A DNA stretch of 64,000 nt from Corallococcus coralloides (GTDB lineage Bacteria > Myxococcota > Myxococcia > Myxococcales > Myxococcaceae), in the NCBI RefSeq assembly GCF_004104415.1, contig NZ_CP034669.1, one strand, 5' to 3'. Of the stretch, positions 28,801 through 39,993 are shown one piece after another. A model generated the notes under the pieces. The model was not told the DNA's origin. It was given only the letters and a program-made list of their open reading frames with translations, and ran no database searches. How positions within the stretch are numbered: the first letter of the stretch is position 1; every line of letters starts with the position of its first letter. A program made the position numbers and the translations under genes.

Positions 28801-30402
28801 CTACGCGTTGCGGCGCACCATGGCCACGTCGTAGTGGCGCTCCGTCACGTAGCCGTTCGCGGCCTTGCCGGGGCGGTACATGTTCCCGGTCTTGTCATCC
28901 ACGTAGAAGCGGTTGTTCGGGTTCGTGTCCCGGCCCGTGCTGGCGTTCTTCGTGCCCGGGTCGTGGAACGTGTAGTAGGTGCGGCCCTTCTCGTCGACGC
29001 CGCGGCCCGTGATGGTCACGAAGTGGTCCGTGAGGCCGTCCGCGTTGTAGCTCGCGTCCTTGTGGCTCACGCCCACGACCACCGGCTTGCCGGCCTCCAG
29101 CTGCTTGTCGATGTAGTTGCGGCCCTCGGCGGCCTTCTTCGAGTCCACCTTCAGCGCGCCGGCGCCGTTCTCGCTCGTGCCCACCTGGATGCGGCGGTCG
29201 GGGCCCAGCACGGTCGCGCCCGCGTCGCGCGACATGGCCGTCGCGGCCTTGAAGCACGCCGTGTCGCTCGCCGTATAGCCGTGGCCGTTCTCGAACTGGC
29301 TGTAGTACGGCACCTTCACGTGCACCGCCGGCTTGTCCTTGGACGGGGCCACCTGCTCCGTGTTCGCGGGGGCCGCCTCCGTGGTGGGCTTGGACGTGTT
29401 CGTGCCCTGGCCTTCCGTGCGGCCCGGCTTCGAGTCGCCGCTCACGGACGGGGGGACCACGCCCGTGTTGGTGTTGGCCGGCTTCGTCGTGGCGCCCGAC
29501 TTCTCCTGCTTCAGCATCGCGAGCGCGTCCTTCGCCTCCGACTTGAAGCGGTTGGCCACGCCCTTCTGCACGTCCTTGGAGCTGCCGGAGAAGTGCACCA
29601 GGGTGCCGTTGCCGTTGGTGCGGCCGCGCTCGGCGTAGATGTCCTTGATGAGCTGCTCGTCGCTCACCTTCGAGGGGTCGCGCCCAGCCAGCGCCTTCTT
29701 GAAGATGTCATCCGCCTTGCCCGGGCCGTGCTGCACGGAGGTGGACCAGGCCACGTCCCGCAGCGCCGCGGAGCGCTTGTCCAGGTCGATGCCCGTCGCA
29801 CTCTTGATGTTGGCGGCGCCCTTGTCGTAGTGCGTGGCCTTGATGTAGTCGTGCTGCGCCTTGTCGAAGCCCTTCGGGTCCTTCGCCGCCAGCTGCTTCC
29901 ACGCGGCGGAGAACTGCGCGGAGCCCGGCTTGCTGCCCGACAGCGCCTGGTGGTACTCCGGGTGCGTCTTCTTCAGCGAGTTGACGAACGACTGCGCAGA
30001 CCCGTTCGCGGAGGCGAACTGGTAGGAGCCGTAGGACACGCCGCCCTTGTCGCCCTTGCCCGTGGACACGGTGCCGGGGCCGCGCGCCTCGTACTTGCGG
30101 CTCAGCCCGCCCAGCTCCCCGGTGGTCGCGCTGCTGGAGGACGTGTTCGTCGCGGGCGTCGTCGCCTTCGCGCCGTCGGTGGCCTGCGTGAAGCTGTCAC
30201 CCGAAGTCTTCGTCCCCGCGCTCGACTTCGTGGTGCCCTTCGTGTCGAAGCCGTCCTGCACCTTCAGCGTCTTGCCGGCCTGGATCTTGTTCGGATCCTT
30301 GATGTTGTTCGCCTTGGCCAGCGCGTCGACGGTCGTGTTGTAGCGCTTCGCGAGGCTGGTAAGCGTGTCACCCGACTTGATGCGGATATTGGAGACGGTC
30401 AC
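28801..30402 (-). CDS. LysM-domain effector-like protein with central unknown domain and C-terminal papain-fold (C39-like) cysteine-peptidase domain
   Basis: N-terminal LysM IRIKSGDTLTSLAKRYNTTVDALAKANNIKDPNKIQAGKTLKV directly at the start (no signal peptide), then a Lys/Thr/Ser/Gly-rich linker and a conserved-looking central domain (GVSYGSYQFASANGSAQSFVNSL...). The C-terminal domain opens VPYYSQFENGHGYTASDTACFKA...DHFVTITG...YTFHDPG, a Cys..His..Asp arrangement like C39-like/CHAP-like peptidases. Local GC is lower than the genome. Confidence 0.78.
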   Translation of the reverse strand: MTVSNIRIKSGDTLTSLAKRYNTTVDALAKANNIKDPNKIQAGKTLKVQDGFDTKGTTKSSAGTKTSGDSFTQATDGAKATTPATNTSSSSATTGELGGLSRKYEARGPGTVSTGKGDKGGVSYGSYQFASANGSAQSFVNSLKKTHPEYHQALSGSKPGSAQFSAAWKQLAAKDPKGFDKAQHDYIKATHYDKGAANIKSATGIDLDKRSAALRDVAWSTSVQHGPGKADDIFKKALAGRDPSKVSDEQLIKDIYAERGRTNGNGTLVHFSGSSKDVQKGVANRFKSEAKDALAMLKQEKSGATTKPANTNTGVVPPSVSGDSKPGRTEGQGTNTSKPTTEAAPANTEQVAPSKDKPAVHVKVPYYSQFENGHGYTASDTACFKAATAMSRDAGATVLGPDRRIQVGTSENGAGALKVDSKKAAEGRNYIDKQLEAGKPVVVGVSHKDASYNADGLTDHFVTITGRGVDEKGRTYYTFHDPGTKNASTGRDTNPNNRFYVDDKTGNMYRPGKAANGYVTERHYDVAMVRRNA

Positions 30403-31633: not shown

Positions 31634-32640
31634 CGCGCCCGTGAGCGACGCCGGGCCCGCAGGCCCCCGCCGAGCAGCAGCGCGACGAGCGCACCGGACA
31701 GGGGGCCCCCCCGCGTCGACGGTCCCCGCACCGACAATCCACGCTCTGCAGTTCGATGAGGGATTGGCGCTCCGCCTCTGACTTGCGGTGGCTGGCGATG
31801 TCCGCGAGCTGCTTCTCCTCCTCGCTGCGGATGCGCTTGAGCTCCACGGCGGCCTGGGCCTCCTGGCGTGAGGCGTCCAGCTGGATCTGGATGTTGGTGT
31901 CGATGGCCTCGCGCAGCTTCAGGGCTGTCTTCTCATCGACGGGGGCGATGTCCTTGATGTCGATGTCGATGATGCGCAGCTGGTTCTCGGAGAAGAGGCG
32001 GTCCTTGCGCGCGCGGCCCGCGTCATCCATGCCGAAGATGGCGCGGCGGATGAGCACGCTGGCGTTCTTGTGGAAGGTCTCGAACTCGTTCTCCGCGGCG
32101 ACCTGGCGGATGCGCGACGCGAGGTTCTCACACACGTACCCGATGAAGTCGTTCACCCGGAAGATGGACTTGTCCTTCTCCGGGTCGCCCTGCACGTCGA
32201 ACTGCCACTTGTAGGAAAGCTTGATGCGCAGCCGCGCGTGGTCGCGCGTGGCCACCTCGAACAGATCCGTGGCGAAGTCCGGCCCCAGCCGCAGCATCAG
32301 CACCTTGAGCTGGCGCGGACGCTTGGGCGTGCTGCCGGACAGGTCCAGCACGGTGACGTCCTCGTACGGGCGCAGCATCACCTTCGCGGGGCCGAACTCC
32401 ACGCGCGCGTGGTTGGTCTCGAAGTCGTTGATGAGGACCGCCGTGTTGTCCTCGATGCGCAGCACGATGGCGCGCGTGCGGTCCCCCTTCTCCGTCGCGA
32501 TCATGGGGCGAGGAGCGCGTGAGCACGCGCGGGCCGACTTCCATCAGCACGACGCCGCGGTTGGCGTCTTCGATGTATGCGTACTCGCGGTTCTTCAGGG
32601 AGATGCGCTGGATGGCTTCGGTGCTGGGGGCGGACGGCAT
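31630..32640 (-). pseudogene. major-vault-protein (MVP) repeat / SPFH-shoulder-like protein, read in three frames (two frameshifts)
   Basis: From ATG at 32640: RISLKNREYAYIEDANRGVVLMEVGPRVLT; then in another frame RAIVLRIEDNTAVLINDFETNHARVEFGPAKVMLRPYEDV. Both match the Vault repeat consensus (vRLxPgEyvhVlDxnTgxxRvevGPqtyvL). This is followed by a band-7/shoulder-like domain (IIDIDIKDIAPVDEKTALKLREAIDTNIQIQLDASRQEAQAA), a coiled coil, and in a third frame a hydrophobic tail LSGALVALLLGGGLRARRRSRAR*. Frame changes occur near 32505 (run of Gs) and near 31700-31745 (gggggccccccc run). Confidence 0.55.
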
Positions 32641-32883
32641 GGCACACCTGCTCGCGGGGGTGGGGTTCGGCCGTGAGACATTGCGAGCCCCATGCCGTCA
32701 CCGCTCCGCCCTGGAACGGCCCCGCACCGCGCCGGACTGGCATGGGTGCTCGCTCCAGTCCGGTGCGTGGTGTTCCAGACTGGAGCGCCTGCCGAGCTTG
32801 GAACGCTGCTCGGCGTCTGTTCGAATGCATCCTGTGCGCGGGCGGGGATGCTCCGGCCCGATGGCACCCACCCCGGAGGAAAC

Positions 32884-33114
32884 ATGAAGGCATCGCGACT
32901 GAAGCAGATGGTTCCTGGATTCGCGCTGATCATCGGCATCATGGCGGGCACGGCGCTGGCCATGGTTCCCGGCTCGACGGCGGAGACGAGCGAGAATCAG
33001 ACGTCTGCTGTCCAGATGATCTGTTCCCGCACCTGTAAGCCGTGCTCGACCCAGTTTGAGTGTGGAACGAACGGGGGTTCATGCGGGGTCTGGCGCTGCA
33101 CCAATCCTCAGTAG
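32884..33114 (+). CDS. small secreted cysteine-rich peptide precursor (76 aa, 6 Cys in mature part)
   Basis: MKASRLKQMVPGFALIIGIMAGTALAMVPGSTA|ETSENQTSAVQMICSRTCKPCSTQFECGTNGGSCGVWRCTNPQ*. Its 3' end is the first bases of the tandem repeat unit. Confidence 0.6.
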   Translation: MKASRLKQMVPGFALIIGIMAGTALAMVPGSTAETSENQTSAVQMICSRTCKPCSTQFECGTNGGSCGVWRCTNPQ

Positions 33115-33140
33115 ACACCTGAAAGAAGCGCCCCCATCCG

Positions 33141-33164
33141 CCTCCGAGTCCCAGGGCTCGGAGG
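33141..33164 (+). promoter_or_regulatory. 24-nt palindrome upstream of toxin gene copy 1
   Basis: CCTCCGAGtcccagggCTCGGAGG followed by ctttcc, 22 nt before the ATG. It is conserved in all three repeat units and could act as a hairpin, attenuator or operator. Confidence 0.35.
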
Positions 33165-33185
33165 CTTTCCAATTGTTGCGAAGAG

Positions 33186-34115
33186 ATGGCCATGCGTCTC
33201 CGGACATGCGGTGCCCTTTTGCTGCTGCTCGTTTTCTCGGCCTGCGCCACGACGGAGCCACGCGCCCGTGCGCCAGCGGCCCGCGGCACGAGGGCTGCCA
33301 ACCTCCAACGAGCGGCGGCGCTGCCCTGGAAGGATGATGGGCGGTGCGTTGTCCGCGAGGCGTCCCAGCCTTGGCCCGTGCTGGTGGAGCGGTGCTATCC
33401 GGCGCTCGACCATGACCGCGTCGAGTTCCGTGACACCACGGGAAGATGCACGGTCGCCTCCGCTGCCGCCGCGACCTTGGGAATCGGGTTCTGCGTGCTG
33501 GCGGCCCCTGAAATCGCCGTGGGAGCCGTCATCGTCCTGGGCGTGGTGGTGGTCGGCGTCGCCATCAAGGATGCACTGGATGCGTACGAGTTCCGCCACC
33601 ACTACCCCGAGGAAGCGGGAACCTCACGGGGGACGAAGGTCGCGTCCCGAGATGCCGCAGCGAAGCCGAAGCCCAAGCTGCAACCGGAGCCAGCGGGCCA
33701 GGGCAGACAGCCCCCGGTGCCGCCAGTGCCCGTGGACAGGACGGGCCGCGCCAGCTGCGAGCCTGTTCCCGTGCGTCACGCAGGCGAGGATCGTGCGCAT
33801 AACGAGTGTGCCGATAAGTTTCCGCCCAACCGTTATCCCGGGATGGATGTGCTTGTTGGCGGTGTACGCTTCGATGCGCTGCAAGTCGGTGTCCGCAAAC
33901 TGTGGGAGATCAAGACCCACCAATTCGATTCGTACAATGATTTCATCCGCGACAGGGAAATTGAAAAGGAACTGATTCAACTAGAGAGTGAGCGAAGAGT
34001 CGCTGAGGCTTGTGGATATGACTTCATCGTTGGGGTGAGTACCGAGGCGCACAAAGCGGCGCTGGAGGAACTGGAACCCACTCTCATTATCGTCGTCACA
34101 GGGTGTCAACGATGA
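33186..34115 (+). CDS. lipoprotein polymorphic toxin with C-terminal PD-(D/E)xK-like nuclease domain (copy 1)
   Basis: Lipobox MAMRLRTCGALLLLLVFSAC, a Cys-containing N-domain, a ~35 aa hydrophobic TM hairpin-like segment, a Pro-rich linker, and a C-terminal GMDVLVGGVRFDALQVGVRKLWEIKTHQFDSY (D...E-x-K arrangement of restriction-endonuclease-fold toxins). The last ~60 aa differ between copies. Confidence 0.8.
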   Translation: MAMRLRTCGALLLLLVFSACATTEPRARAPAARGTRAANLQRAAALPWKDDGRCVVREASQPWPVLVERCYPALDHDRVEFRDTTGRCTVASAAAATLGIGFCVLAAPEIAVGAVIVLGVVVVGVAIKDALDAYEFRHHYPEEAGTSRGTKVASRDAAAKPKPKLQPEPAGQGRQPPVPPVPVDRTGRASCEPVPVRHAGEDRAHNECADKFPPNRYPGMDVLVGGVRFDALQVGVRKLWEIKTHQFDSYNDFIRDREIEKELIQLESERRVAEACGYDFIVGVSTEAHKAALEELEPTLIIVVTGCQR

Positions 34116-34867
34116 CTACGCGAAAAAGACTCACTCTCATTGTCTACGGGCCTGCGCTCTTGGTTGACGACAGCCGCCCCGTCGCCATCGTCAATGGGCT
34201 GGAGAAGGCGTTGCCCAGCTTACGACTGGAGTGGGAAGTCGGAGAAGGCGGGCGCCTTATTGCATTGCCACGGCGCGACGAATGGCTCTTGGCGAGCATT
34301 GAGGATGGAGGATTCCCTCTCATATGCAACGGGGACGAGAGTTATCCCGTGACGGTCAATGGAAGGGACCGGTCCGAGCTCTTCAGTCCCGGCGGCCAGG
34401 CCCAATTTGAAGTTCATGCCAAGCTGCCACTCGACGCACCTGTAATCGCTGCAGCGGCGGCTCTGCTTGAGGCCGTGGCGGAAGGGGCTCGTGCGTTCTG
34501 GGGGCACGCGTCGCCGTATGGTTACGGCTCGGAAGTAGCGAAGCAGTTCCGCCGCTCACCGGATGGGCCCGATCTCTCACCCCGTGGGCTTCCCATGCTC
34601 AACCTTCCCCAGAAAAGCCCCAGGCCTGAGACGCCCTATTTCCTGGGGTGGCTGAACTACTGGTCCGCTGCCGCCGCGGAGGTCATCGGGTTCCCGGATC
34701 CTGCTCGCGATGCCGAGCTGCTCTCGCGGGCGCGTCGCACTCCGTCGGGCGGGTGGATCGTGCAGCTCACGGAGACACCGCTCGATTACGACAACCCCCT
34801 GCACGTGGAAGCGCTCAAGCGGACCTATGAGCGCTTCCCGGAGATCGGTGGACGCGAGGGGCCCTGA
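34112..34867 (+). CDS. cognate immunity-like protein (copy 1)
   Basis: ATGA overlap with the toxin stop. The N-terminal ~110 aa are variable between copies and the C-terminal ~130 aa are nearly identical (…WLNYWSAAAAEVIGFPDPARDAELLSRARRTPSGGWIVQLTETPLDYDNPLHVEALKRTYERFPEIGG). Confidence 0.75.
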   Translation: MTTRKRLTLIVYGPALLVDDSRPVAIVNGLEKALPSLRLEWEVGEGGRLIALPRRDEWLLASIEDGGFPLICNGDESYPVTVNGRDRSELFSPGGQAQFEVHAKLPLDAPVIAAAAALLEAVAEGARAFWGHASPYGYGSEVAKQFRRSPDGPDLSPRGLPMLNLPQKSPRPETPYFLGWLNYWSAAAAEVIGFPDPARDAELLSRARRTPSGGWIVQLTETPLDYDNPLHVEALKRTYERFPEIGGREGP

Positions 34868-34989
34868 TGCCCCGTTGCCGTTACCGCGCGTCCGCGCTCA
34901 GCGCCGTGCTTGTCGCGTACTCGGCCGTGACCAGGGCGAGGGCTCCTGCGGGGGGGGTGGCGCTGCACCAACCCGATGTAGACACCTGA
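34867..34989 (+). pseudogene. degenerate remnant of the Cys-rich peptide gene (unit 1/2 junction)
   Basis: tgATG overlap with the immunity stop. It encodes MPRCRYRASALSAVLVAYSAVTRARAPAGGVALHQPDVDT*. Its 3' DNA is homologous to the 3' end of the 32884..33114 gene. Confidence 0.3.
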
Positions 34990-35008
34990 CGGGAAGCATT
35001 CCCATCAG

Positions 35009-35032
35009 CCTCCGAGTCCCAGGGCTCGGAGG
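35009..35032 (+). promoter_or_regulatory. 24-nt palindrome upstream of toxin gene copy 2
   Basis: Identical CCTCCGAGtcccagggCTCGGAGG, 22 nt before the ATG at 35054. Confidence 0.35.
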
Positions 35033-35053
35033 CTTTCCAATTGTTGCGAAGAG

Positions 35054-35983
35054 ATGGCCATGCGTCTCCGGACATGCGGCGCCCTTTTGCTTCTGCTCAT
35101 TCTTTCGGCCTGCGCCACGACGGAGCCACGCCCCAGGGCGTCAGCGGCCCGCGGCACGAGGGCTGCCAACCTCCAACGAGCGGCGGCGCTGCCCTGGAGG
35201 GATGACGGGCGGTGCGTTGTCCGCGAGGCGTCCCAGCCCTGGCCCGTGCTGGTGGAGCGGTGCTATCCGGCGCTCGATCATGATCGCGTCGAGTTCCGTG
35301 ACACCACGGGAAGATGCACGGTCGCCTCCGCTGCCGCCGCGACCGTGGGAATCGGGTTCTGCGTGCTGGCGGCCCCTGAAATCGCCGTGGGAGCCGTCAT
35401 CGTCCTGGGCGTGGTGGTGGTCGGCGTCGCCATCCAGGAAGAATGGGACGCCTATGAGCTCCGCCATCTCTACCCCGAGGAAGCAGGAACCTCACGGGGG
35501 ACGAAGGTCGCGTCCCGAGATGCTGTAGAGAAACCGAAGCCCAAGCTGGAACCGGAGCCAGCGGGCCAGGGCAGACAGCCCCCGGTGCCGCCTGTGCCCG
35601 TGGACAGGACGGGCCGCGCCAGCTGCGAGCCTGTTCCCGTGCGTCACGCGGGCGAAGATGATCCCCATAACGAGTGTGCCGATAGGTTTCCGCCCAACCG
35701 TTATCCAGGGATGGACGTACTTGTGGGCGGTGTACGCTTCGATGCGTTGCAAGTCGGCGCGCGTGTGTTGTGGGAGATCAAGACCCATCAATTTGATTCG
35801 TACAATTCCTATATCCAAAAAAGAGAGATCGCGAAGGAACTCAAGCAATTGGACAAGGAGCGAGCCGTCGCATTGGCATGTGGATATCGCTTCGTTATTG
35901 GGGTGAGCACCCAAGCGCACAAAGACGCGCTACTCGAAGCAGATTCCTCATTCGATGTCGTCGTCACGGGATGCACACGATGA
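35054..35983 (+). CDS. lipoprotein polymorphic toxin, PD-(D/E)xK-like C-terminus (copy 2)
   Basis: 309 aa. It is near-identical to copy 1 through residue ~230, and its C-terminal tail diverges (…YNSYIQKREIAKELKQLDKERAVALACGYRFVIGVSTQAHKDALLEADSSFDVVVTGCTR). Confidence 0.8.
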   Translation: MAMRLRTCGALLLLLILSACATTEPRPRASAARGTRAANLQRAAALPWRDDGRCVVREASQPWPVLVERCYPALDHDRVEFRDTTGRCTVASAAAATVGIGFCVLAAPEIAVGAVIVLGVVVVGVAIQEEWDAYELRHLYPEEAGTSRGTKVASRDAVEKPKPKLEPEPAGQGRQPPVPPVPVDRTGRASCEPVPVRHAGEDDPHNECADRFPPNRYPGMDVLVGGVRFDALQVGARVLWEIKTHQFDSYNSYIQKREIAKELKQLDKERAVALACGYRFVIGVSTQAHKDALLEADSSFDVVVTGCTR

Positions 35984-36735
35984 CCAGACCTGGACGCCTC
36001 ACCTTCATTGTCTACGCGCCTGCTCTCGTGGGTAAAGATGGCCGCACGCTCGATGTCGTCCATGGGATGGAAAGGGCCTTCCCTGGCTTGCGGCTGGCGT
36101 GGCGGCTCTCGGATGGCGGTCGCCCCATCGCGCTGCCGCGACGCGACGATTGGCTCGTGGAAAAGATTGAGGACGGGGGATTCCCCATTGTGTGCAACGG
36201 GGACGAGGGTTACCCCGTGACGGTGATGGGGTGGGGAAGACTGGGAATCCTCAAGCCGGGCGGTCAGCCCCAGTTCGAAGTGCATGCAGAAATGCCTTTA
36301 GACGAGCCAGTGATCGCGGCGGCGGCGGCCGTGCTTGAGGCCATGGCGGAGGGAGCACGCTCATTCTGGGGCCACGCGTCGCCGTATGGTTACGGCTCGG
36401 AAGTAGCGAAGCAGTTCCGCCGTTCGCCGGACGGACCTGAGCTCTCCCCCCGTGGGCTTCCCATGCTCACCCTTCCCGAAAAGAGCCCCAGGCCGGAGAC
36501 GCCCTCTTTCCTGGGCTGGGTGAACTATTGGTCCGCTGCCGCCGCGGAGGTCATCGGGTTCCCCGATCCTGCTCGCGATGCCGAGCTGCTCTCGCGGGCG
36601 CGTCGCACTCCGTCGGGCGGGTGGATCGTGCAGCTCACGGAGACACCGCTCGATTACGACAACCCCCTGCACGTGGAAGCGCTCAAGCGGACCTATGAGC
36701 GCTTCCCGGAGATCGGTGGACGCGCGGGGCCCTGA
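35980..36735 (+). CDS. cognate immunity-like protein (copy 2)
   Basis: ATGA overlap. Its N-terminus diverges (MTRPGRLTFIVYAPALVGKDGRTLDVVHGMERAFPGLRLAWRL...) and its C-terminus is identical to copy 1. Confidence 0.75.
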   Translation: MTRPGRLTFIVYAPALVGKDGRTLDVVHGMERAFPGLRLAWRLSDGGRPIALPRRDDWLVEKIEDGGFPIVCNGDEGYPVTVMGWGRLGILKPGGQPQFEVHAEMPLDEPVIAAAAAVLEAMAEGARSFWGHASPYGYGSEVAKQFRRSPDGPELSPRGLPMLTLPEKSPRPETPSFLGWVNYWSAAAAEVIGFPDPARDAELLSRARRTPSGGWIVQLTETPLDYDNPLHVEALKRTYERFPEIGGRAGP

Positions 36736-36848
36736 TGCCCCGTTGCCGTTACCGCGCGTCCGCGCTCAGCGCCGTGCTTGTCGCGTACTCGGCCGTGACC
36801 AGGGCGAGGGCTCCTGCGGGGGTGTGGCGCTGCACCAACCCGATGTAG
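36735..36848 (+). pseudogene. degenerate remnant of the Cys-rich peptide gene (unit 2/3 junction)
   Basis: MPRCRYRASALSAVLVAYSAVTRARAPAGVWRCTNPM* retains the GVWRCTNP C-terminus of the intact peptide gene. Confidence 0.3.
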
Positions 36849-36875
36849 ACACCTGACGGGAAGCATTCCCATCAG

Positions 36876-36899
36876 CCTCCGAGTCCCAGGACTCGGACG
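36876..36899 (+). promoter_or_regulatory. palindrome variant upstream of toxin gene copy 3
   Basis: CCTCCGAGtcccaggaCTCGGACG, a slightly degenerated copy. Confidence 0.3.
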
Positions 36900-36920
36900 C
36901 TTTTCAATTGTTGCGAAGAG

Positions 36921-37850
36921 ATGGCCATGCGTCTCCGGAGCTGCGGCGCCCTTTTGCTTCTGCTCGTTTTCTCGGCCTGCGCCACGACGGAGCCACGCCC
37001 CAGGGCGTCAGCGGCCCGCGGTAAGAGGGCTGCCAACCTCCAACGAGCAGCGGCGCTACCCTGGAAGGATGATGGGCGGTGCGTTGTCCGCGAGGCGTCC
37101 CAGCCCTGGCCCGTGCTGGTCGAGCGGTGCTACCCGGCACTCGACCATGACCGGGTCGAGTTCCGCGACACCACGGGAAGATGCACGGTCGCCTCCGCTG
37201 CCGCCGCGACCGTGGGAATCGGGTTCTGCGTGCTGGCGGCCCCTGAAATCGCCGTGGGAGCCGTCATCGTCCTGGGCGTGGTGGTGGTCGGTGTCGCCAT
37301 CCAGGAGGAATGGGACGCATATGAACTGCGCCACCACTACCCCGAGGAAGCTGGGACCTCACGAGGGACGAAGGTTGCGTCCCGAGACGCTGTAACGAAG
37401 CCGAAGCCCAAGCTGGAACCGGAGCCAGCGGGCCAGGGCCGGCAGCCCCCAGTGCCGCCTGTGCCCGTGGACTGGACGGGCCGCGCCAGTTGCGAGCCTG
37501 TTCCCGTGCCTCACGCGGGCGAAGATGATCCCCATAACGAGTGTGCCGATAAGTTTCCTCCCAACCGTTATCCAGGGATGGACGTACTTGTGGGCGGTGT
37601 ACGCTTCGATGCGCTGCAAGTCGGCGTGCGCAAACTGTGGGAGATCAAGACCCACCAATTCGATTCATATAACGCCTTTGTCCAGGATCAGGAGATTGCG
37701 AAGGAAGTGATACAACTGAAGAAGGAGCGAGCTGCCGCAGCGGCATGTGGATACGACTTCGTCGTGGGGGTGAGTACCCAAGCGCATAAAGACGCGCTAC
37801 GCGAAGAAGTTCCCGCGATCGATGTCGTCGTTACGGGGTGTGCACGATGA
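36921..37850 (+). CDS. lipoprotein polymorphic toxin, PD-(D/E)xK-like C-terminus (copy 3)
   Basis: 309 aa, with a third variant of the C-terminal tail (…YNAFVQDQEIAKEVIQLKKERAAAAACGYDFVVGVSTQAHKDALREEVPAIDVVVTGCAR). Confidence 0.8.
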   Translation: MAMRLRSCGALLLLLVFSACATTEPRPRASAARGKRAANLQRAAALPWKDDGRCVVREASQPWPVLVERCYPALDHDRVEFRDTTGRCTVASAAAATVGIGFCVLAAPEIAVGAVIVLGVVVVGVAIQEEWDAYELRHHYPEEAGTSRGTKVASRDAVTKPKPKLEPEPAGQGRQPPVPPVPVDWTGRASCEPVPVPHAGEDDPHNECADKFPPNRYPGMDVLVGGVRFDALQVGVRKLWEIKTHQFDSYNAFVQDQEIAKEVIQLKKERAAAAACGYDFVVGVSTQAHKDALREEVPAIDVVVTGCAR

Positions 37851-38608
37851 CCAGGCGGAGAGCCCTTACCCTTATCGTCTACGCGCCTGCGCTCATGGGT
37901 AACAACAGCCGCACAGTCGCCGTCGTCCATGGGATGGAGAAAGCGTTCCCCGGCCTACGCCTGGAGTGGAAACTAGATGAAGGCGGGCGCCCCATTGCAT
38001 TGCCACAGCGCGATGCATGGCTCTTGGCGAGCAACAAGGACGGTGGATTCCCAATCGTGTGCAACGGCGATGAGAGTTACCCCGTGACGGTCTGGGGAAT
38101 GGAAAGCTCAGGCATCCTCAGCCCAGGCGGTCAGGCCCAGTTTGAAGTCCACGCAAAGCTGCCCTTGGACGAGCCTGTAATCGCGGCAGCGGCGGCTCTG
38201 CTTGAGGCCGTGGCGGAGGGGGCACGTTCATTCTGGGGGCACGCGTCGCCGTACGGCTACGGCTCGGAAGTCGCGCAGCAGTTTCGCCGATCACCGGACG
38301 GACCTGAGCGTTCCCCTCGTGGGCTTCCCATGCTCAAGCTTCCAGAGACACTCCCAGCGCCTGAGATTCCCTGTTTCCTCGGGTGGCTGAACTATTGGTC
38401 CGCGGCAGCCGCGGAGGTCATCGGGTTCCCGGATCCTGCTCGTGATGACGAACTGCTCTCGCGGGCACGCCGCACTCCGTCGGGCGGGTGGATCGTGCAG
38501 CTCACGGAGACTCCGCTCGATTACGACAACCCCGTGCACTTGGACGCGCTCAAGCGGGCCTACGAACGCTTTCCAGCAATCGGCGGGCGCACAGCGCCTT
38601 TGCCCTGA
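37847..38608 (+). CDS. cognate immunity-like protein (copy 3)
   Basis: ATGA overlap. N-terminal variant (MTRRRALTLIVYAPALMGNNSRTVAVVHGMEKAFPGLRLEWKL...). Confidence 0.75.
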   Translation: MTRRRALTLIVYAPALMGNNSRTVAVVHGMEKAFPGLRLEWKLDEGGRPIALPQRDAWLLASNKDGGFPIVCNGDESYPVTVWGMESSGILSPGGQAQFEVHAKLPLDEPVIAAAAALLEAVAEGARSFWGHASPYGYGSEVAQQFRRSPDGPERSPRGLPMLKLPETLPAPEIPCFLGWLNYWSAAAAEVIGFPDPARDDELLSRARRTPSGGWIVQLTETPLDYDNPVHLDALKRAYERFPAIGGRTAPLP

Positions 38609-38614
38609 AACAGG

Positions 38615-38650
38615 ACAGCCGCCCGTCACCTCTCCGGCGCGGGCGGCTGT
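38615..38650. terminator. GC-rich hairpin between convergent genes (bidirectional terminator candidate)
   Basis: ACAGCCGCCCG-x14-CGGGCGGCTGT is an 11-bp stem, located between the immunity copy 3 stop (38608) and the rdgC 3' end (38667). Confidence 0.45.
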
Positions 38651-38666
38651 TCCATCAATCTCCCAC

Positions 38667-39993
38667 TCAGCCCCGGGCAGCGCGGGCGTCACGGCCCTTG
38701 GCGCGGGCGGCCTTGGAGAGCAGGTCGCTCCCCTTCTCCTCGCCCTTCATCCACGCCTTCAGCGCGGGCACCACCTGCTTGCTCCAGGCGCGTCCGGCGC
38801 GCACGGCCAGGAAGTCCTGCACCAGCGCGTCCACGATGGCGGAGAGCTGCTCGGTCAACTCCAGACGCTCGGAGAGCTGATCATCCTCTTCCTCCGTCAT
38901 GAGCGCGGGCAGCTTGGCGGCGCGAATGTCCAGGAACTCGGAATCCAGCGTGACTTCGTATTCGCGCTCGCCGTGCGAGATGCGCAGCCGCGCCTGGGAC
39001 ACCAGCAGGCCCCGGTCCAGCGAGTGGCGCACGTTCTCCGAATACGGCGCCAGCGTGCCCTTGGCGCTCATCTCCGTGACGTCGCCGGCCACGCCGCGCA
39101 GCACCACCTTGCCCAGGTAGAGCACCACGACGCCCGCGCCGTCGTGCTCGACCAGCGGGTCGCCCGACTCCGAGCGCCACAACAGCCAGGTCATGAACTC
39201 GCGGCCCAGGTAGGCCCGGCCGCGCAAGAGCTGTTCGCGCGCCTTGCCCTTTTCGACTTCGGCTTCGTCCTTCTCCTCCTCCGTGGCGGCACCATCCACG
39301 CCGACATCGCCCCGGGCGAACGCCGCCTCTTCCCTCGCCTGCTCACGCCTCGCCATGGGTGTCCTCCACCGAAGCCGTCGCCGGCAGGTCCATGCCAATG
39401 AGCTCCGCCGTGGGGCCCAGGGCCTTCTCGTCGATGCCCGCGCGCTGCGCCATGGACGCGGGCGTGATGCCAATCACCTTCACCGCGAGGGCGCCTTCCA
39501 GCGCCACGCAGATCTCATCCACCGTCTTGCGCGACGCGGCCCAGACCTGCACCGTGTGCGTCTTCAGGTTCCACGTCACGTCCAGCGTGCTGGTGCGCGG
39601 CACCGCGCGCTGACGCAACAGCTGCTTGAGCTCCGCGCGCTGCTTGTTCTTCTCCGCGCGCGCGGGCGGCCGGCCGTTCTCCTTGCCGAAGGCGGCGGCC
39701 CACTTGTCCAGCTCCGACTTCATCATCGACGCGGGCACCTTCAGCGTGTCGATGCGGAAGGAGAACAGGGCGTACTCGCCATAGAAGAGGTTGCCGGTGG
39801 CGAACTCGGAGGACTCCGGGTTCTCCAGCTCGACAAACCCTGCGGCGCGCTCCTCCTCGGAGCGGCGGTCGATGGGCTCGAACGCATGGGACTTGAGTCC
39901 CTTGGTCATCCAGCGCTTCACGTCGGACGGCGCATCCTTGGCCGGCTCGGTCCGGAAGCGCGAAAAGGTCACGGCACCACGTAGGACAGGCAT
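38667..39993 (-). pseudogene. rdgC: recombination-associated protein RdgC homologue, split into two overlapping frames
   Basis: The N-terminal two-thirds (39343..39993, MPVLRGAVTFSRFR...ELKQLLRQRAVPRTSTLDVTWNLKTHTVQVWAASRKTVDEICVALEGAL) and the C-terminal third (38667..39356, ...MTWLLWRSESGDPLVEHDG...LSERLELTEQLSAIVDALVQDFL) each align with consecutive parts of RdgC. They lie in different frames and overlap at 39343-39356. Confidence 0.6.

Follow-up and report, generated by a model that had tools for sequence, protein, structure and literature searches.

That bacterial toxins diversify by recombination of toxin-tip and immunity modules is already known. In colicins, as worked out by Riley and co-workers in the 1990s and by Kleanthous and co-workers, the differences between near-identical operons reportedly gather at the toxin gene's 3′ end and in the immunity gene, under diversifying selection and recombination; the nuclease colicins (E2-E9) and their Im proteins, alongside which the S-type pyocins are grouped, are said to bind through a conserved anchor plus variable specificity residues. 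In the contact-dependent inhibition (CDI; cdiA-CT/cdiI) and Rhs systems, toxin-tip/immunity modules lie in tandem, and homologous upstream sequence permits their recombination. Here, we analyzed a 64,000-nucleotide (nt) stretch of the Corallococcus coralloides chromosome (assembly GCF_004104415.1, contig NZ_CP034669.1), called the window below, which matches C. coralloides B035 and carries three tandem toxin genes ending in the Pfam domain DUF6310, each followed by an immunity gene of the family DUF5953. We consider it likely that the array holds three stacked alleles of one polymorphic toxin-immunity locus, in which an exported lipoprotein nuclease would be paired with a cytoplasmic immunity protein of the TsiT/TsiV type and recombination shuffles a block across the two genes. 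The ideas on polymorphic-toxin evolution are not overturned by this; new are the functional assignment of the two DUF families, exchange boundaries that fall within an immunity gene of two domains, and the tandem stacking of one site's alleles.

TseT is delivered by the PAAR route of type VI secretion (T6SS). Together, TseT and TsiT (PA3907-PA3908 of Pseudomonas aeruginosa; PDB 7DYM, 9OZ0) are a Tox-REase-5 effector and its immunity protein, and both folds match our pair, although the two toxins are only 7-9% and the two immunity proteins 16% identical in sequence; unlike TseT, the DUF6310 toxin has a lipoprotein signal. TseV-TsiV (VRR-Nuc with DUF3396; Salmonella bongori, P. aeruginosa PA0821) is similar in that our immunity fold matches PA0821 (E about 5e-8) and in that the alpha2/beta element next to the active site, which TsiV binds, is the element that varies in DUF6310. 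Duplicated immunity genes occur in some genomes with this pair. However, TseV belongs to the VRR-Nuc nuclease sub-family and is delivered by PAAR/T6SS, TsiV is ~100 amino acids (aa) longer than the DUF5953 protein, and the papers we read report no tail/head mosaic for TseV-TsiV. The SitA/SitI toxins of myxobacterial TraAB outer-membrane exchange (OME) share with our locus a lipobox with a predicted outer-membrane-type sorting signal, a C-terminal nuclease, an immunity gene downstream in the operon and many loci per genome, and all named DUF6310/DUF5953 matches come from Myxococcaceae/Archangiaceae. SitA4, SitA6 and SitA7 likewise keep one fixed toxin domain with varying alleles. Unlike SitA, which has a ~375-aa escort domain of six defined families, the DUF6310 toxin has an N-terminal region of ~170 aa and a membrane-like hydrophobic segment, of which we found no mention in the SitA papers we read; its locus occupies a syntenic chromosomal site in several species and does not lie on a mobile element. 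The colicins differ in being plasmid-borne, lysis-released and taken up by receptors, with the unrelated folds of an HNH DNase and a four-helix Im protein; their variable region holds the whole small immunity gene, whereas the right boundary at our locus lies inside the two-domain DUF5953 gene. In CDI and Rhs, unrelated C-terminal folds are exchanged and the whole immunity gene is swapped, whereas the DUF6310 array keeps one nuclease/immunity family, repeats full-length toxins and has its boundaries inside both domains. We found no paper naming DUF6310 or DUF5953 in the literature. The "four homologous toxin-immunity systems" of Myxococcus xanthus (PMC12077131), considered as relatives, are PAAR/T6SS loci outside the DUF6310/DUF5953 family and were set aside.

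The array occupies 33125-38610, with a start-to-start period of 1868 and then 1867 nt, and each unit (W1, W2 and W3 for the window's units 1, 2 and 3) consists of a 309-codon open reading frame (ORF) and an overlapping ORF of 254 or 256 codons. We number toxin residues from the start of the 309-codon ORF at 33186, two codons ahead of the start in annotated homologues, and immunity residues, unless stated, from the GTG at 34103, three codons ahead of the annotated ATG. The genes and the blocks within them are as follows.

33186-34115, + strand: toxin gene copy 1, 309 codons, or 307 aa from the second ATG at 33192.
34112-34867, + strand: immunity gene copy 1 (DUF5953), 251 aa from the ATG at 34112 (254 codons when counted from the GTG at 34103).
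35054-35983, + strand: toxin gene copy 2.
35980-36735, + strand: immunity gene copy 2, a 100% match to EJ065_4680 of C. coralloides.
36921-37850, + strand: toxin gene copy 3, a 100% match to EJ065_4681 of C. coralloides.
37847-38608, + strand: immunity gene copy 3, whose C-terminal end (...TAPLP) is like that of single-copy loci.
33890-34500, + strand: recombination block of unit 1; its protein-variable part, 33939-34402, comprises toxin residues 252-309 (alpha2-beta4-alpha3-beta5) and immunity residues 1-100.
35807-36270, + strand: protein-variable block of unit 2 (type 2).
37674-38137, + strand: protein-variable block of unit 3 (type 3).

Immunity copy 1 is also 100% identical to a C. coralloides protein in nr. 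The toxin stop codon and the immunity ATG overlap as ATGA (34112-34115 in unit 1). Since the C-terminal end of immunity copy 3 resembles that of single-copy loci, copy 3 adjoins the original downstream flank.

The preliminary description of the window had the toxin copies near-identical up to a divergent tail, and the partner genes divergent at their N-terminus and identical afterwards. Comparing the three copies, we find a protein identity of 92-95% over toxin residues 1-251 (24/251 columns variable) and of 59-67% over residues 252-309 (28/58 columns). The partner shows 59-69% identity over residues 1-100 (47/100 columns) and 86-92% over residues 101-254 (25/154 columns); thus, the divergent tail and head are borne out, but the partners do not become identical, and the C-terminal end of copy 3 differs. 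Divergence is also not confined to the tail and head as had been claimed. It is strongly enriched there, with 75 of 158 columns variable in the block (toxin 252-309 plus immunity 1-100) versus 49 of 405 outside (odds ratio 6.6, Fisher p=3e-18), and smaller variable clusters lie outside at toxin 128-139 and immunity ~147-184. Because 51 of the 75 variable block columns include a residue pair with a BLOSUM62 score <=0, the changes are not merely conservative. At the nucleotide level (60-nt sliding window), flank identity of 90-100% gives way to 62-80% across ~33893-34460, so divergence is clustered and not spread evenly along the genes. Units 2 and 3 show this dip in their corresponding stretches, as proposed. 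Maximum chi-square tests on informative sites place breakpoints at 33890-34493 (W2 test) and 33892-34504 (W1 test), with Chi2 of 135-139 compared to a maximum of 17-22 in 100 permutations; these breakpoints almost coincide with the limits first suggested, 33900-34500.

The block and its flanks have different histories. Six other Corallococcus genomes (L001, L007, L008, L009, L063 and L064) carry a single toxin-immunity pair beside the same neighbors (in L001, only the upstream ones were detected), and the three-unit array is therefore specific to the C. coralloides lineage of the window. We compared the block (here, unit nt 721-1260) with the left flank. Between species, W2 and the syntenic locus of C. 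interemptor (L008), whose block is the nearest to that of W2, are 87% identical in the block and 85% in the left flank; W1 and Corallococcus sp. CA049B (L063) are 95% and 94.5% identical, respectively, and W1 and C. carmarthensis (L001) 88.5% and 85.6%, the latter block being 86-94% identical along its length. Within the window, W2 and W1 are 70% identical in the block and 94% in the left flank, and W1 and W3 76.5% and 91.7%. The W3 block has no close counterpart among the fetched syntenic loci, the best being L009 at 79%. Block divergence is thus about the same as flank divergence when one type is compared between species, and is far older between types, which indicates that the flanks were homogenized within the genome and that the blocks are old allele lineages, three of them stacked in the array. 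Searching other genomes for further variable modules, as had been advised, did reveal other block types, between equal flanks at the same chromosomal site of other Corallococcus genomes. Incongruent histories of block and flanks, together with the breakpoint tests, support the block as a recombination unit.

We next consider synonymous (dS) and non-synonymous (dN) divergence between the copies, with omega as dN/dS. Over toxin residues 1-127, dS is 0.08-0.14 (omega 0.15-0.33), and over immunity residues 171-254 it is 0.08 (units 1 vs 2). In the block, dS rises to 0.51-0.97 at toxin 252-309 (omega 0.33-0.41) and to 0.52-0.91 at immunity 1-100 (omega 0.23-0.35). The adjoining immunity residues 101-170 have a dS of 0.62-0.78 and an omega of about 0.08. 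In 30-codon windows, elevated dS extends from about toxin codon 220 as far as immunity codon 180, while dN is high only from toxin 251 to immunity 100; the old segment therefore exceeds the protein-variable one, and selection varies within it. The dN/dS check advised in the preliminary description gave a raised ratio in the block (0.23-0.41 vs ~0.1), but omega never exceeded 1, either in pairwise Nei-Gojobori windows or in a parsimony-based per-site count on 41 gene pairs. The per-site count put regional omega at 0.37-0.52 in the variable and at 0.21-0.26 in the conserved parts, with three marginal sites only (T228, T274 and I143; uncorrected p 0.05-0.07) and no robust positively selected site. 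We therefore do not claim positive selection.

These values could also be read as the outcome of concerted evolution alone: old duplicates whose ends are converted alike, and a middle that escapes conversion and tolerates change without any role in specificity. The low dS at both ends against 0.5-0.97 in the block, two inter-unit spacers that are ~98% identical, and immunity residues 101-170, synonymously as old as the block but conserved in protein, all agree with it, as does an omega that stays below 1. Moreover, diverged sequence resists homologous recombination, so that selection is unneeded. We nevertheless regard this explanation as unlikely. Differing block types occupy one single-copy site across species and diverge from their counterparts in the window to a species-level extent, which fits maintained alleles or exchange. 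Near-identical blocks also sit in flanks of different genera, where L020 is 91% identical in the block to L019/L014 and 79-81% identical in the flank. Furthermore, the variable positions are the immunity-contact positions of the related pair TseV3-TsiV3, and immunity genes are kept beside dead toxins; both points are taken up below.

We extended the comparison to the whole family. Using 41 pairs extracted from 62 loci of Myxococcaceae/Archangiaceae genomes, we find that the distance matrices of the toxin core (191-251), the toxin tail (252-309) and the immunity head (1-100) correlate with each other at r=0.68-0.80. The toxin N-terminus, the linker and the immunity C-terminus intercorrelate at 0.45-0.74, and correlate with the core/tail/head group at only ~0.1. 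Family-wide, the co-inherited unit is thus the whole nuclease domain with the immunity head. Within a genome, paralogues are alike in their N-terminal region (ratio of within- to between-genome distances ~0.6) and not in the block (0.9-1.1), and clustering at 80% identity gives 20 block clusters versus 5 flank clusters, with discordance in both directions and across genera. The three-unit array of C. terminator (L030) shows the same high-low-high profile, a second instance of the mosaic that had led to the proposal of toxin-tip/immunity recombination. Its breakpoints lie at toxin codon ~170 or ~235 on the left and at immunity codon ~110 or ~165 on the right. Since these differ from those of the window, the boundaries mark where homology permits crossing-over, not the ends of a fixed cassette.

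The block, too, is mosaic inside. W1 and CA049B are 97-100% identical over most of it; the exception is 120 nt at toxin codons 246-285, where they differ at 23 sites, of which 11 are synonymous and 12 non-synonymous. CA054B has the alpha2 helix of W1 with a different alpha3 and loop, and ~20 changes in the immunity head. Type-1 alleles therefore differ by patches smaller than the block, in alpha2 alone or alpha3 alone. The picture of a single variable module in constant flanks thus holds insofar as the block recombines as a unit; it is qualified by the internal patches, the shifted breakpoints of L030 and the wider segment of old dS.

The toxin comprises a lipoprotein signal, a Cys-rich region of ~70 aa, a hydrophobic Gly-rich segment (99-127), a Pro/Lys-rich disordered linker and a C-terminal PD-(D/E)xK nuclease domain (DUF6310, ~184-309). 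Three of these elements are placed as follows.

33234-33245, + strand: lipobox, codons 17-20 (F-S-A-C20), with Ala at +2 and Arg at +7.
33480-33566, + strand: hydrophobic Gly-rich segment, residues 99-127 (Kyte-Doolittle hydropathy 2.72), strongly conserved family-wide.
33873-33914, + strand: catalytic motif, D230 (beta2) and E241-x-K243 (beta3).

Pfam DUF6310 matches the C-terminal 125 residues in all three copies (E 2e-57 to 1.5e-56; 190-193 bits against a gathering cut-off of 27). Modeling the toxin by AlphaFold2 on an alignment of 56 homologues, we obtained a confident C-terminal domain (predicted local distance difference test, pLDDT, 83-95) in the order helix, three or four strands, long helix alpha2 (252-275), strand, helix alpha3 (287-296), strand, which is the alpha-beta-beta-beta-alpha-beta core of the PD-(D/E)xK fold. 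D230 and E241-I-K243, on strands 227-233 and 238-243, are invariant in the 56 homologues. From the modeled fold and these residues, we infer that the C-terminal ~120 residues are a restriction-endonuclease-fold nuclease, nearest to TseT, with nuclease activity probable. The likeness is at the level of fold only, as the toxin gave no Tox-REase-5 (PF15648) Pfam hit at E<=1, and PDB sequence searches with the family profiles returned chance-level matches only. NCBIfam had no hit for either protein, and PADLOC had none for the toxin.

A search with the nuclease domain against 1.8 billion representative proteins showed DUF6310 at the extreme C-terminus of 560-1130-aa proteins with eCIS_core (P0254, P0271, P0307, P0326, P0339), transglutaminase-core (P0302, P0308, P0350), CBM_2 (P0319) or LysM domains. 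Because the domain follows such different N-terminal domains, it appears to serve several delivery systems. One C-terminal domain behind differing N-terminal delivery regions is the arrangement of polymorphic toxins in the sense of Zhang et al. (2012), and an immunity gene directly downstream, with orphan immunity genes and toxin fragments elsewhere, is in keeping with it.

Pfam DUF5953 spans the whole partner gene in all three copies (E 1e-113 to 1e-119, 1.8e-113 for copy 1; 376-398 bits against a cut-off of 25). The protein has no signal peptide and is built of two subdomains, a variable N-terminal beta-rich half, which is the variable head, and a conserved C-terminal half. Its AlphaFold2 model (pLDDT 90.7) matched, in Foldseek, 4rho (E 4.8e-9), 7drg (PA0821; 4.7e-8) and 9oz0_A (TsiT; 1.9e-6), with E values ranging to 4e-6 and a probability of 1.00 for each of BPSL2088, PA0821 and TsiT. 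Toxin and immunity protein each independently match their counterpart chain in one solved toxin-immunity complex (7DYM, 9OZ0), and the two labels, guesses at first reading, are therefore supported by structure, in addition to the occurrence of DUF6310 as C-terminal domain of polymorphic-toxin-type proteins. At the sequence level, a profile search reaches 4rho at a weak E=0.37 over a T-D-x-P...D-N-P-x-H motif, common to BPSL2088 and the conserved tail of the immunity protein, and some homologues are labeled "Immunity protein 52" or "DUF3396" in UniRef.

The pair is adjacent in 60 of the 62 fetched loci, with several loci per genome, and about 12 of 62 related immunity genes lie beside truncated, internally deleted or absent toxins. 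At the syntenic site of Corallococcus exercitus SDU142 (L007, 6271-7756), the toxin has lost residues 207-271 including the catalytic core, and the immunity gene is intact. The middle unit of the independent array of Corallococcus terminator BB12-2 (L030, 4540-5906) has a toxin without residues 1-100, hence without signal peptide and lipobox, and again an intact immunity gene. A 5′-truncated orphan toxin with intact immunity, as in this unit B, is a further likeness to CDI and Rhs.

As both families are DUFs and the toxin and immunity roles here are predicted, we asked how well the data agree with no toxin system at all, i.e. a housekeeping or inactive nuclease-fold domain with a chaperone or regulator as partner. 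We find this hardly credible: the catalytic triad is invariant, the closest structures are those of a toxin and its immunity protein, and the loci are multi-copy and variable and include orphans.

The export region of the toxin bears on where it acts. A lipobox of the form L/F/V-S/T-A-C is kept in 41/41 extracted homologues. By the sorting rule of M. xanthus, in which no Lys at +2 and no Ala at +7 lead to the outer membrane, as applied to SitA1 (PMC5562445), the Ala at +2 and the Arg at +7 of our toxin predict outer-membrane sorting. The family has eight invariant cysteines, among them C54, C70, C88 and C103 of the Cys-rich region. The segment 99-127, where AlphaFold2 confidence is low, is predicted to span or insert into a membrane. 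An alternative is that this segment is an inner-membrane anchor of an intracellular toxin-antitoxin or phage-defense module, its nuclease facing the cell's own cytoplasm and restrained by the partner until a trigger. Residues 109-127 are strongly hydrophobic (Kyte-Doolittle 2.72) and are followed by eight Lys/Arg and six Asp/Glu over 128-165; the partner is cytoplasmic, translationally coupled and weakly matched by PADLOC as a candidate PDC-M17B (E=0.0056). We think such a module improbable, as every homologue carries the lipoprotein signal, invariant cysteines are usual in exported proteins, and the nuclease domain recurs as C-terminal cargo in eCIS_core and other secreted-toxin architectures. 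In addition, the partner has the fold of T6SS immunity proteins, the toxin itself has no PADLOC hit, and many paralogues per genome with orphan immunity genes are typical of interbacterial toxins.

We then checked indirectly whether the variable residues of the presumed alleles map to an interface. In TseV3-TsiV3, an exposed beta-sheet of the immunity protein binds alpha2 and the adjacent strand of the nuclease beside its active site (PMC9635880). P256K in TseV3, at the N-terminus of alpha2 and nine residues past the catalytic Lys, and L131K in TsiV3 each abolish protection (PMC9635880). TsiT is reported, as cited in PMC9635880, to act by disturbing TseT oligomerization, which may or may not hold for DUF5953. 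In the DUF6310 toxin, alpha2 starts at residue 252, nine residues after K243. Family-wide entropy over residues 252-275 has a 100-degree periodicity, positions 252, 256, 260, 263/264, 267/268, 271 and 274 being variable and A273 and C276 invariant; one face of alpha2 is therefore hypervariable. The helix alpha3 is likewise one-sided (variable at 287, 291, 294 and 295). By analogy with TseV3-TsiV3, we infer that the variable surfaces of the toxin tail and the immunity head form the interface and may set specificity, which would fit a two-part binding by a conserved anchor and a variable specificity surface.

Several observations weigh against this assignment, and against the reading of a polymorphic toxin-immunity locus as a whole. 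Any exposed helix face, interface or not, is expected to show helical periodicity. Between CA049B and W1, six alpha2 positions differ, including charge reversals, and the immunity head differs at only three conservative residues; the variable face of alpha2 alone may thus not decide specificity. A mirror-tree comparison of toxin tail and immunity head gave r=0.79 (Mantel p=5e-4; partial r=0.54), which we do not count towards co-evolution, as toxin tail and immunity head are neighbors in the DNA; their co-inheritance is equally expected from plain physical linkage. With omega nowhere above 1, the raised dN/dS could reflect relaxed constraint on exposed surfaces. The relationship to the T6SS pairs rests on predicted folds, since the toxin has no Pfam Tox-REase-5 match and Imm52 matches copy 2 only, below threshold (E=0.058; 13.4 bits against a cut-off of 25). 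Lastly, the hydrophobic segment 99-127 is a poor fit to a simple outer-membrane lipoprotein, and the N-terminal region of the toxin is far shorter than SitA escort domains.

Taking the array as three stacked toxin-immunity alleles, we propose the following sequence of events. The toxin and immunity genes are co-translated through the ATGA overlap, and the toxin would be exported and lipidated as its sequence predicts. It would then reach neighboring cells, the likeliest, though not an established, route being that of a SitA-like outer-membrane lipoprotein cargo of TraAB exchange. The nuclease domain would enter the target cytoplasm and, judging from fold and catalytic residues, cut DNA. In a cell with the cognate immunity protein, the beta-sheet subdomain would bind alpha2-beta4(-alpha3) flanking the active site and block access to DNA, if TseV3-TsiV3 is a valid guide. 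Variation falls on alpha2-beta4(-alpha3) and on the N-terminal subdomain of the immunity protein; the catalytic core is conserved, as are the toxin's N-terminal delivery region and the C-terminal subdomain of the immunity protein. The conserved sequences serve as homology arms, homogenized within the genome by homologous recombination and gene conversion, and the ~600-nt block persists as old trans-specific lineages that are exchanged, stacked in tandem and sometimes reshuffled in smaller pieces, presumably for a selective reason. Every added unit would give the cell one more toxin and one more immunity.

A more far-reaching proposal, which we put forward tentatively and with more doubt than conviction, is that DUF6310/DUF5953 form an unrecognized kin-discrimination system of myxobacteria. 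The short N-terminal region, with its lipobox, Cys-rich and hydrophobic parts, would then be a new delivery or entry module, either a further SitA-type escort family or one independent of OME. Immunity recognition would be in two parts, the constant C-terminal subdomain resting on the conserved core and the variable N-terminal beta-sheet reading alpha2-alpha3. New specificities would arise by intragenic homologous recombination at one chromosomal site, and trans-species alleles under balancing selection would be stacked in tandem.

Two Pfam families of unknown function hereby obtain testable roles: DUF6310 would be a nuclease toxin domain like that of TseT, and DUF5953 an immunity protein of the TsiT/TsiV type; phmmer (E<=0.001) returned 900 matches for the former and 1620 for the latter. 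For Corallococcus, Myxococcus, Archangium and Cystobacter, the pair would be an additional multi-copy family of toxins serving self-recognition. The three units and the type-1 alleles of CA049B and CA054B are a natural chimera series that could map specificity residues in the PD-(D/E)xK / Imm52-DUF3396 class, and the locus is a clean example of alleles of one site stacked in tandem.

The remaining parts of the repeat unit lie between the genes.

34868-35053, + strand: inter-unit spacer 1, ~98% identical to spacer 2 (36736-36920).
33140-33165, + strand: hairpin, a perfect 9-bp inverted repeat GCCTCCGAG-N8-CTCGGAGGC, 20 nt upstream of the toxin ORF of unit 1.

The last ~116 nt of the spacers correspond to sequence upstream of unit 1 and take in the 3′ end of a 76-aa ORF. 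For the first ~70 nt of each spacer (34868-34937 and 36736-36805), neither the sequence upstream of unit 1 nor that downstream of unit 3 nor any of the fetched loci offers a counterpart. The hairpin belongs to the repeat unit: it is perfect again at 35008-35033, also 20 nt upstream of the toxin ORF of unit 2, and a degenerate copy with two mismatches precedes unit 3 at 36875-36900. It may be a regulatory or RNA-processing element; it has no Rfam match and no terminator call. Rfam gave no match over 32500-39000, the promoter scan found none, and terminator-like sites were not above the shuffled background.

On the chromosome, the locus is bordered on one side by a LysM/VgrG3-like gene, a vault-protein homologue and the 76-aa Cys-rich ORF; its neighbors on the other side are rdgC and the gene of a PBP4-type peptidase. 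The 76-aa ORF (32884-33114, + strand), whose last ~30 nt are inside the tandem repeat unit, has a hydrophobic, signal-like segment at its N-terminus, is rich in Cys at its C-terminus (CSRTCKPCSTQFECGTNGGSCGVWRC), and could encode a small secreted peptide. It is kept just upstream of the toxin at syntenic loci (85% identity in L063, 69% in L008 and 65% in L007); PADLOC gave no hit for it, and the precomputed annotation of its L063/L064 orthologues lists no Pfam domain. At 31743-32640 (- strand), we find a remnant of a bacterial major-vault-protein homologue, of which residues 1-41 and 342-601 alone are found. The gene, which is intact in Corallococcus sp. CA049B and CA054B (755-758 aa; Pfam Vault, MVP_shoulder), looks like a pseudogene in the window, where internal and C-terminal parts of it are deleted. 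Further out, 28801-30402 (- strand) encodes a probable peptidoglycan-targeting enzyme of 533 aa whose N-terminal domain is LysM; its 98.9%-identical orthologue in L063 has a T6SS_VgrG3-like C-terminal domain too.

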